This document shows positions 11,902 through 63,503 of a stretch of 64,000 nt of DNA, piece after piece; position 1 is the first letter of the stretch, and the number at the start of each line of letters is the position of its first letter. Origin of the DNA: Eledone cirrhosa (lineage: Eukaryota); the NCBI GenBank assembly GCA_964016885.1, contig OZ024745.1, forward strand, positions 105,958,001 to 106,022,000, read 5' to 3'. The translations under genes were made by a program, and so were the position numbers. A model generated the notes under the pieces. The model did no database searches. It worked only from the letters and a program-made list of their open reading frames with translations, and had not been told where the DNA came from.

Positions 11902-13304
11902 TGTGAGAGAAGGTTAATGATGAATTAAAGTTATCATGAAACCGAACATGTGGTTCGAATGTTTGCGACAAAGGGAATTTTTCTCACCTCAATTGCTTCA
12001 CCCTCATTTTTATCCTCTTGTGATCTTCCTCCTACTATTTCTTCCTTCCTTCTCCTTCTTATTCCTTTAATAATTAAGTTTGTCCATTATCCTTCAGGGC
12101 TCGGTAAATAAGATGTACAGTGAGGGACAGGAGGAGTAATTAGATCGGCTCTTTGAATTCTGTTAGGTTTAATATATGCTTGTTTCAGCACCACCACCAC
12201 ACACTCTTTGGAAAATGTCAACGGAGTCTACTCGGTTGTAAGCATCTGGACTAGGTATCCTATTTGGATATACCTTCCTCTCTCAGACCAGTCTTGGGGG
12301 TTCCTGAAATGAGACATGAGCAATGTTTTCACTTCTGACACAGTGAAAAGTAAAATAAATGAGCCTACCAAATTATAAATGAGGTCAGCGCCCCCTCCCC
12401 CACTACCCTCCACGCTACACTTCACTCAACCTTTCAGACATTTTCCTCTCCAGAACAATACATAATTGTATTGAACGAGAGATGGTACCCGACTTTTGAT
12501 CTCAGTTTACTTTGAGCTCATTAATGAAAGACACCTTCTTTAACGAATCCCTTGTACCGTAAATTAACCGAAAGTAAAGTTTCAGAATACATATTTCCGA
12601 ACAGGCTTTGAAAAAAACAAAAAAGCAAAAAAAAACAAAAAAAAACAAAAAAAAAACAAAAACAAAAACACGGATTGAATGCTGTAGTCTGTATAATGTA
12701 GTATCAGATTGAGAATCAAAATAAAAATGTTTTCCTCATATCATTTATACTTAAACGACTACAATCGTATCAGAAAGAAATTCTTCAACAATTGATTTCG
12801 GAAATTGGGGCGATAAAGAAGGATATAAAATAATGTAATAATTATTGTTAACAATGAGATCGTTCTATTTATTAAGGGGGCACTAAATATCTCCTAAGTG
12901 CATATTCTTAAGAAAATTCGGTGTGTTTTATTCATTTGTGTAAGTTTGCCTATGCCTCGTTGTGTGATGGTAAAGCTGATGTCATGTACATGTCTATGTA
13001 TCTATCTATCCACACACCCACACACATATACATATATATATATATATACACACATATATATATATATATATATATATATATATATATATATATATATATG
13101 TTTACATATATGTTTATATATATATGTACGTACATATATATATAAATATATATATATATATATATATATATATATATATATAAATATAGACATAGAATAT
13201 TCGAAAATATTCTGTATGTTTATAATAAACATTTTGAAGACCTAATCGCTATAGAATAGAATACGTCACGTATTACAATTAGATTCTCGATAAAAGCAAG
13301 GGAA

Positions 13305-13657
13305 GTAATCTACGCGTTTCATTCTTGTTAGAATTCATCAGGACTACATATCCAGTGCTTTTATCGAGAATGACACAGCTAGAGACTTATAGAATACTTA
13401 GCTGTGTACAGGAACTGGTTTGAAAGAGCGGTTGCCGGTCCGGCAGAAATTAGAAATTGGAATAAATGCTCTGAAATAGCGATATATATGTGAATATAGA
13501 CATAGAATATTCGAAAATATTCTGTATGTTTATAATAAACATTTTGAAGACCTAATCGCTATAGAATAGAATACGTCACGTATTACAATTAGATTCTCGA
13601 TAAAAGCAAGGGAAGTAATCTACGCGTTTCATTCTTGTTAGAATTCATCAGGACTAC
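13305..13657 (-). ncRNA. Two minus-strand copies of the same hammerhead (13305-13347 and 13615-13657)
   Basis: Exact reverse complement of 13928-13970. Confidence 0.9.
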
Positions 13658-13927
13658 ATATCCAGTGCTTTTATCGAGAATGACACAGCTAGAGACTTAT
13701 AGAATACTTAGCTGTGTACAGGAACTGGTTTGAAAGAGCGGTTGCCGGTCCGGCAGAAATTAGAAATTGGAATAAATGCTCTGAAATAGCGATATATATG
13801 TGAATATAGACATAGAATATTCGAAAATATTCTGTATGTTTATAATAAACATTTTGAAGACCTAATCGCTATAGAAAGTATTCTATAAGTCTCTAGCTGT
13901 GTCATTCTCGATAAAAGCACTGGATAT

Positions 13928-13970
13928 GTAGTCCTGATGAATTCTAACAAGAATGAAACGCGTAGATTAC
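13928..13970 (+). ncRNA. Type I hammerhead ribozyme, first of 15 plus-strand copies spaced 310 bp apart (last at 18268-18310)
   Basis: Helix I gtagtc/gattac; core CTGATGA 13934-13940; helix II attct/agaat with loop aaca; GAAA 13955-13958; palindromic helix III acgcgt; GUA cleavage triplet ending at 13964. A distal 16-bp stem pairs 13904-13919 with 13977-13992. Confidence 0.92.
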
Positions 13971-61939: not shown

Positions 61940-62420
61940 TACCTATCTACCGGCCTTTCTGGAGAATTGTAAAAGCACATATCGTTATATGCTTTTTCTA
62001 TGAAAATTAGTAGTGGGCAGACCAATTTGCATAGAGTGTGAGTACGCACCGGTTCAGCGGAGACGATAAAAACAAATAACGAAACGAAATTAAATTTCGT
62101 TTCGTTTGTAACTCACTTTTGTATGACTGACGCTTAAACAATTAAGTTAAAAATGTACATCTACATATGCATACTGAAATACTAGTGTGTATATGAATAC
62201 ACACACGTATACATATGTAGGTGTACCAAGTCTTTCACTGGTCGCTTTACCCCCCCCCCCCTTATATATATATATATATATATATATATATACAACAAAG
62301 AAGGTGTGGCAAGACATCAAGTGAATCATAACGCTCCAGAGTACTCGATATCCAGCCCTCGGGGCCCTGACTCTTTTCATATATATATATATATATATAT
62401 ATATATATATATATATATAT

Positions 62421-62713
62421 AAAGACGTAAAATAAGAAAATAAAAAAAAATAAAAAAATTTTTTTAAATTAACTTACTTAAATGTTCACTCCAACTAATT
62501 AGTTTCTGCAATGGGATAAAGACAGTTACGTAATCTAACTGTCAAGAATTCACTGCGTCATCAGGGAGTCTGATGACGCAATGAATTCTCGACAGTTAGA
62601 TTACGTAACTGTCTTTATCCCATTGCAGAAACTAATTAGTTGGAGTGAACATTTAAGTAAGTTAATTTAAAAAAATTTTTTTTTTTTTTTTAATTTTCTT
62701 ATTTTACGTCTTT
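62421..62713. mobile_element. ~290-bp palindromic insertion next to (TA)n, with a complete minus-strand hammerhead at 62488-62569
   Basis: The arms are near-perfect inverted repeats centred at ~62567. Reverse complement reads actcc-CTGATGA-cgcagtg...cattgca-GAAA-ctaattag-TT-ggagt. Confidence 0.85.
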
Positions 62714-63014
62714 TATATTATTGTTCTGCATCCTCCTGCATTGAACCACCTAGGTAGTATGACATAACCTGTGTATTTGCTGGCATTAGCGTACATCTGT
62801 GTGCTTATGTTAGTAGATATATTAAATTATCTATATATATATATGTCAGTCTTCTGTCTTCCTGTCTGCCTGTCTATCTCTCTCACTCACTATCTGGCTC
62901 TCTCTATCTCCCCCGTTATATATATATATATACACACACACACATACATACACACACACACACACACACACACACACACACACACACACACACACACACA
63001 TATATATATATATA

Positions 63015-63503
63015 GAGGAACCAGTAAGACCCCGACGGCTGAGCTCAAGCCGTTTCGACGGCTAATTCTGGACTAAATGAAAATTTATCCTGGTATTTAA
63101 ATAGCCGAGCTTCTCAAGGGGTAATTCCATATATGGTCAAAGTGATTGTCAAGAGTCAGTAGTAATTCTGTGATTGCAAATTAGTAGGGGAGATGGTGGC
63201 TAAACCTGCCAGTAGGTGGCTAAACCTGGCAGGTTTAGCCACCATCTCCCCTACTAATTTGCAATCACAGAATTACTACTGACTCTTGACAATCACTTTG
63301 ACCATATATGGAATTACCCCTTGAGAAGCTCGGCTATTTAAATACCAGGATAAATTTTCATTTAGTCCAGAATTAGCCGTCGAAACGGCTTGAGCTCAGC
63401 CGTCGGGGTCTTACTGGTTCCTATTACCCACTCTACTACTCTAAGTATTGAGTACTTTGGTGCGTTATGGTCCACCTGGTTCCTTACCACATTTCCTTCG
63501 TTA
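63015..63503. mobile_element. Palindromic element (family B) with two U3:A8-variant hammerheads (minus 63029-63122, plus 63316-63409) and an ~80-bp unique tail
   Basis: ~200-bp inverted arms centred at ~63220. Plus arm reads acccc-TTGAGAA-g..cggcta...tagccg.c-GAAA-cggct tgagctc agccg-TC-ggggt. (TA)n on both sides. Confidence 0.8.

Follow-up and report, generated by a model that had tools for sequence, protein, structure and literature searches.

Inverted hammerhead insertions in Eledone cirrhosa pair two fixed 3′ ends, consistent with priming from both strands of (TA)n targets

Introduction

The 64,000-nucleotide stretch of Eledone cirrhosa contig OZ024745.1 analysed here (the window) is AT-rich and microsatellite-rich and comes from a genome of 3.0 Gb. 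A first-pass annotation of its sequence described eight inverted structures carrying hammerhead ribozyme sequence, all of one polarity: the arms lie head-to-head, and their ribozyme-sense 3′ ends face outward into (TA)n. The annotation proposed that both strands of a cut (TA)n target had primed reverse transcription, on a multimeric or circular template or on two RNAs. The locus thus raises the question of whether this polarity holds across the genome, and of what kind of insertion event would leave it.

Results

Eight inverted insertions in the window

All eight structures are present at the annotated places in a masked self-comparison of the window. With arm orientation set from the sequence downstream of the hammerhead motif, all eight are head-to-head with 3′ ends outward (two-sided binomial p = 0.008). 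A hammerhead had been annotated in both arms throughout, but the motif is complete in each arm in only three of the eight, those starting at 13183, 50960 and 63015. The right arm of the element at 62421 lacks the 5′ strand of stem I, and the duplicated arms of those at 26861, 49381, 57436 and 60030 contain only the 3′ half of the hammerhead, so the polarity of these four was taken from fuller family copies elsewhere. The number of families, five, was right, but four of the eight elements belong to a single family, F2. The arms do duplicate the same sequence inside, and TA-like bases merge into (TA)n at both ends; the outer ends nevertheless differ, a tail of 37–110 nt being present on one arm only in seven of the eight. 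Two 3′ ends recur in each of the families examined: site A and, further 3′, site B, spaced by 37 nt in F1, ~60 nt in F4, 80 nt in F2 and ~110 nt in F3 and F5.

The F1 insertion has a left arm on the minus strand (13183–13876), made of 2.2 units of a 310-nt tandem hammerhead repeat and ending at site A in (TA)n, and a sense arm (13876–18469, plus strand) of 14 identical units plus 254 nt, which carries 15 type I hammerhead motifs with palindromic stem III and ends at site B. In the F2 stub at 26858–27048, the left arm (minus) runs to A and the right arm (plus) continues through the 80-nt tail to B, with the hammerhead present as its 3′ half only; a separate, one-armed F2 piece with a tail follows on the plus strand at 27081–27218, after (TA)n(AG)n, and a lone antisense F2 fragment lies at (TA)n at 28380–28420. 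The F3 stub at 49381–49658 is built differently: its arms, 49412–49521 (minus) and 49522–49631 (plus), each end at A, and ~30 nt of left flank, consisting of (TA)n and ~13 nt of unique sequence, is repeated inverted on the right. It has no catalytic core, which is present in other F3 copies, and is a likely fold-back product. F4 (50961–52572) is a tandem repeat with ~3 units on the minus strand (B end) and one partial unit on the plus strand (A end); its cores lie at 51292, 51738 and 52204 on the minus strand and at 52296 on the plus strand, its tail is ~60 nt, and its arms meet on a native palindrome near 52253. Older, diverged antisense F4 copies occupy 50376–50909.

Two annotated extents required correction. 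The element at 57436–57770 is a composite, in which the inverted pair is an F2 stub at 57566–57770 (left arm on the minus strand with the tail to B, right arm on the plus strand to A) and 57436–57566 is a minus-strand piece of a sixth hammerhead family (motif 57525–57563), whose 5′ end is joined to the B end of the stub. The inverted pair at 62421–62713, of family F5, is there, but its tail carries it on to about 62833: the left arm (minus) runs to A and includes a complete hammerhead at 62493–62564, and the right arm (plus) passes 62713 through the ~110-nt tail to B. The two remaining F2 insertions are a stub of a diverged subfamily at 60030–60228 (left arm A, right arm B) and a longer copy at 63016–63503, in which the left arm (63016–63216, A) and right arm (63226–63503, B) are separated by a 9-nt insert repeated from the left arm. 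The latter contains a type I hammerhead motif on the plus strand at 63316–63409, with a U3-A8 core variant, a long stem II and a predicted cut after 63404.

Other features lie among these insertions. An inverted repeat without hammerhead label at 48104–48416 has a one-sided 40-nt tail, as the hammerhead elements do, and a tRNA-like Rfam match (48238–48308, 36 bits) lies between its arms. A lone antisense hammerhead of another family (61879–61950) adjoins (TA)n and matches Rfam HH9 with 38.6 bits, below gathering; it is the one hammerhead among the Rfam matches listed for the window (150 of 177), which are mostly microRNA models on microsatellites and palindromes. A very abundant repeat with 140–200-nt units (34069–34353, 42309–43221, 56890–57029 and 63625–63765) has no hammerhead by our descriptor and the deepest read coverage of the mapped runs. 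A GC-richer, single-copy stretch at about 60810–60992, with a splice-donor-like end and also matched by reads of another organism, is possibly a host exon, which may place the elements in introns. Finally, 54219–56375 holds ~300 nt of (CA)n followed by 1.8 kb of degenerate (TA)n, and 58022–58221 is a 200-N assembly gap.

Polarity across the genome

An unselected genome sample of 99 evenly spaced 10-kb stretches (990 kb) contained 75 matches to a type I hammerhead descriptor, against one in one shuffle. With a junction defined as an inverted repeat whose arms lie no more than 1500 nt apart, with no intervening microsatellite, 42 of 43 hammerhead-family junctions in the 99 stretches (13 family clusters) are head-to-head (p = 1e-11); in the single tail-to-tail case (L094), the arms meet at a short TA stretch and adjoin another inverted element. 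The microsatellite filter itself accounts for part of the loss of tail-to-tail pairs, because 3′ ends are embedded in (TA)n. This concern is limited, since distant opposite pairs are near even (5 head-to-head vs 6 tail-to-tail, in 79 of the 99 stretches) and adjacent opposite arms of F2, counted with no microsatellite filter, are 119 head-to-head vs 10 tail-to-tail, with (TA)n between the arms in seven of those 10.

Inverted junctions are about three times denser in the window than in the sample (125 vs 43 per Mb). Of 237 hammerhead-family pieces, 94 belong to a detected inverted pair, many pieces being one-armed, and of the 42 sampled pairs, all families together, 27 directly abut (TA)n on one outer side and carry a tail on the opposite one. 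The 99 stretches (L031–L109 and L300–L319) hold 76 further inverted repeats without a hammerhead label, many of which share the (TA)n-plus-tail anatomy and may be other families of Penelope-like elements (PLEs).

Two fixed 3′ ends

The main pattern, absent from the first-pass reading, is a fixed rule for the ends: one arm stops at A and the other at B. End pairing was followed in sets of F2, F3 and F5 loci. Among 119 F2 junctions, 81 are A+B, one is A+A and none is B+B, with 37 left unclassed because an arm met the edge of its locus, (TA)n was lacking or the ends were unusual. As tail-bearing queries had selected the majority of F2 loci, A+A pairs are under-represented except among the 15 classed junctions of the unselected sample; the fair figure is therefore that all 15 of these are A+B (7 unclassed; p = 6e-5). 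The pairing is also A+B in 6/6 F5 and 4/5 F3 junctions, window copies counted. Sites A and B of F2 each end in TAT, which merges with the target, and the ends of the other families, read by eye, are TAT or AT.

Both arms of F2 stubs have 5′ ends that cluster 45–70 nt upstream of site A, within the 3′ strand of stem II of the hammerhead (26910, 57708 and 60088 in the window), with 98 of 134 at 50–69 nt, a count in which many loci were picked with short queries; this cluster is a candidate reverse transcriptase (RT) stall or RNA start. Hammerhead cleavage was considered as the origin of either end and rejected, the cut falling ~20 nt 5′ of A and the 5′ ends well upstream of it. The ribozyme is a marker of the strand and determines neither end. 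Separately, a hairpin-like motif, RCTC...GAGY, occurs in 9 of 25 clusters of tails from inverted elements in L031–L109, L300–L319 and the window, against 0.73 expected from shuffles (the motif was first chosen by eye), and is a candidate binding site between the two start sites.

Truncation, junctions and source of the two arms

In 81 F2 A+B insertions, the A arm extends further 5′ (by >5 nt) in 23, the B arm does so in 27, and the two end within 5 nt of each other in 31. Four insertions (L112, L117, L126 and L127) have a tail-less arm that is longer by 1.4–3.0 kb with no tail anywhere in it, which means that neither arm could have been copied from its partner. The long-arm count leaves aside the window stub at 26858, where a neighbouring copy was chained in, and two more long-arm cases are multimers, indecisive on nesting. 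Of the 81 junctions, 25 overlap by at least 2 nt, 20 are joined bluntly or through 1 nt, and 36 contain inserts, which reach at least 4 nt in 28; some inserts repeat adjoining arm sequence. End joining can yield inserts of this kind.

Rare variants of the F2 A arm recur in the partner B arm in 19 of 100 cases, where 1.1 would be expected. For 21 long insertions, the partner arm is unrivalled as the closest copy in 12, while 1–2 closer copies exist in four; the other five are weaker on partner match, mostly with short overlaps. The two arms of L173 follow a two-unit template in register, outer matching outer and inner matching inner, which supports the proposed multimeric template, a circular one not being needed; the short arms of L174 and L175 match the outer unit, and that of L164 agrees with the inner unit at a single polymorphic site. 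As read from these shared variants, the arms of one insertion derive from the same source copy, one molecule and sibling transcripts being indistinguishable. Gene conversion between the arms could mimic such a common source. A fixed palindromic master was rejected, as junctions differ from locus to locus.

Identity of the families

The F2 elements in the window (26861, 57566, 60030 and 63015) are 3′ ends of one autonomous element. Longer copies run, on the hammerhead-sense strand, into a frame that carries RT motifs and, at its C-terminus, a nuclease of the GIY-YIG type (VIY...YIG core). By motif, the open frame in L161 encodes 784 residues with RT and GIY-YIG-type endonuclease; a Pfam search with three F2 frames gave no match. 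Tandem F2 units have a period of 3523–3546 nt and form pLTRs with the hammerhead. Arrays of full-length units lie at C2:51.27–51.29 Mb and C2:11.10–11.12 Mb (L160–L163), the L161 frame being uninterrupted and the L162 copies having a common frameshift. F2 thus has the traits of an endonuclease-bearing (EN+) PLE: a single RT/GIY-YIG ORF, tandem pLTRs, an inverted 5′-truncated copy and a one-sided tail. Its protein matches the Hydra clade in the C-terminal EN, DKT, CxCx5C, lack of CCHH, CxxC and CxH, its target is likewise (TA)n, and it departs from the clade description in RWR for RWK, its 3.5 kb unit and its U3-A8 hammerhead core. We assign F2, by motifs and the published clade description, as a PLE with Hydra-type protein motifs. 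The U3-A8 core variant is described in PMC4209133; the F2 hammerhead is assigned by motif and is not the minimum-energy fold (-19.8 vs -25.0 kcal/mol, z -1.42).

F1, F3, F4 and F5 consist of short tandem units, each with one complete type I hammerhead, of 310 nt (F1) and ~450 nt (F4) in the window and of ~560 nt (F5) and ~490 nt (F3) at other loci. These non-coding families appear retrozyme-like and are likely mobilised by PLEs.

Discussion

The eight elements are real and an additional case of a known PLE insertion layout. From the end products observed directly (outward polarity, two 3′ ends, A+B pairing, independent 5′ truncation, a common source and TA-like ends), we infer that both nicked strands of (TA)n probably prime reverse transcription separately, one at A and one at B, on the same source transcript. 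A GIY-YIG nuclease would nick both strands of the self-complementary (TA)n, and each nicked 3′ end would anneal to a short UAU or AU stretch of the RNA. The two cDNAs would then extend inward and stop independently, and short overlaps, palindromes or small inserts copied from a template would serve to join their free ends, with repair filling in afterwards. Inward growth from both nicks would permit only the polarity with 3′ ends outward. In support of this, the purified PAc protein cleaves both strands in vitro and extends them; it is a predicted dimer, with the tail between two RT start sites (PMC11167929). Several observations fit less well: 49381–49658 repeats its flank inverted, as fold-back predicts, some junctions lie on native palindromes (F4; L160/161) that suit self-priming equally, the short arm of L164 matches the inner unit at its one polymorphic site, the PAc start site has no homology to the cut DNA (PMC11167929), and the hammerhead-family pieces that belong to a detected inverted pair are a minority.

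Self-priming on an antisense template was proposed in 2013 (PMC3846280): one cDNA or antisense template folds and is copied back as the second arm, central deletions making the non-nested cases. The private variants common to both arms, the junctions on native palindromes, the arms ending within 5 nt of each other in 31 of 81 A+B insertions and the F3 stub with both ends at A and an inverted flank copy speak for this model. As the general mechanism it is nonetheless unlikely. It would need 1.4–3.0 kb deletions exactly at the junction in four insertions and loops of >100 nt in 14 (15 less the 26858 stub), it sits poorly with inserts of at least 4 nt at 28 of 81 junctions, and it gives the copied arm no reason to halt at site A every time; an inverted flank, moreover, was seen in one element only among the both-ends-at-TA cases examined. 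Two-strand priming is favoured over self-priming by the A+B pairing, the non-nested arms and the common source copy, with a minority of insertions likely formed by fold-back. The first-pass proposal of priming from both strands thus gains support from the non-nested arms and the in vitro data, except at 49381–49658, which fits fold-back better.

Very unlikely, in our judgement, is that both strands prime on two RNAs drawn independently from the cell pool. An RT dimer could carry two RNAs, sibling transcripts of one locus would look like one molecule, and the window has one two-family junction without (TA)n (57566). Yet independent choice of starts predicts A+A and B+B, found in one and none of 82 junctions, differences between arms are mostly private alleles with the partner arm usually the nearest copy, and the 99 unselected stretches, searched with a limited family library, gave no two-family junction. 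The suggested "two RNAs", taken as two random copies, are not supported, since the arms have a common source. We give almost no credence to library fold-back chimeras or assembly errors. Some elements do have identical arms (the 13183 array and 63015), and four read runs on 56800–64000 gave no listed piece spanning a palindrome junction, though other repeat copies dominated that mapping, which for this reason says nothing either way. Arm identity, however, ranges from 78 to 100%, the outer ends differ by a family-specific tail between flanks unique on each side, junction positions vary among loci, and the layout is published for other animals.

A more specific version of two-strand priming can be offered tentatively, and is somewhat doubtful as it stands: one PLE dimer at the tail hairpin might prime both (TA)n strands on one RNA, at two UAU sites flanking the hairpin, with the second copy displacing the first. 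If true, such duplicating twin priming would account, in a single step, for the inverted repeat, the tail on one side and the passenger retrozymes.

Comparison with known systems

In L1 twin priming, both target strands prime on one RNA, giving the same 3′-outward polarity, and the resulting pieces do not overlap. The insertions described here share that polarity and differ in that both arms copy one stretch, and this would require the strand to be displaced or a second transcript to be used.

The closest relatives are EN+ PLE insertions, which, as here, have an inverted 5′-truncated copy at the 5′ end, placed head-to-head, with partial tandems (PMC3846280; PMC8557442 Fig. 2), a tail at one end and palindromes at the junction (PMC3846280; PMC8557442). 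Tails are 37–110 nt here and 30–40 nt in published PLEs (PMC3846280; PMC8557442). Head-to-head is stated to be the commonest PLE arrangement (PMC3846280), and PMC8557442 already describes the inverted 5′-truncated copy, the tail on one side and the bias to (TA)n, so the surprise that the first-pass annotation implied for the polarity is not supported: the layout itself is old, and the window alone is ordinary. The one-A-one-B pairing and the non-nested arms were not found stated in the excerpts of these two papers, nor the A+B rule or the nesting argument elsewhere in the part of the literature covered, where a search for that rule or for priming from two strands returned just the papers cited here. 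PMC8557442 lists the origin of tandem and inverted PLE insertions among the open questions. Our counts of A+B pairs, of arms that are not nested and of a common source weigh against self-priming as published, and are a modest mechanistic addition, testable in an existing in vitro system. At ~43 such junctions per Mb of the sample, palindromes of this kind are a common part of the genome.

Within PLEs, F2 resembles the Hydra clade, which has a C-terminal nuclease, DKT, a CxCx5C linker, no CCHH, a CxxC/CxH C-terminus, a (TA)n target and a hammerhead in the pLTR; F2 differs in its 3.5 kb unit (generally <3 kb in the clade), in RWR vs RWK and in its U3-A8 core (PMC8557442). One octopus Hydra family, Hydra-1_Obim, is in File S1 of that paper. 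PAc (Poseidon) is similar in that both strands are cut and extended, two internal RT starts bound the tail, and the target is AT-rich (PMC11167929). Its start site shares no homology with the cut DNA, and its strands were read apart (PMC11167929), whereas A and B here end in TAT or AT, and each is used once per insertion.

Animal non-LTR retrozymes, like F1, F3, F4 and F5, are non-coding tandem units with one type I hammerhead each that occur beside autonomous PLEs (PMC7229834; bioRxiv 10.64898/2026.07.22.740005). A word search of the available text of these two sources gave no mention of inverted arms or tails. The retrozyme-like elements described here, with units of 310–560 nt, bear the PLE insertion footprint and thereby provide direct support for retrozyme mobilisation by PLEs, tying non-coding retrozymes to the PLE machinery through the way in which they are inserted.
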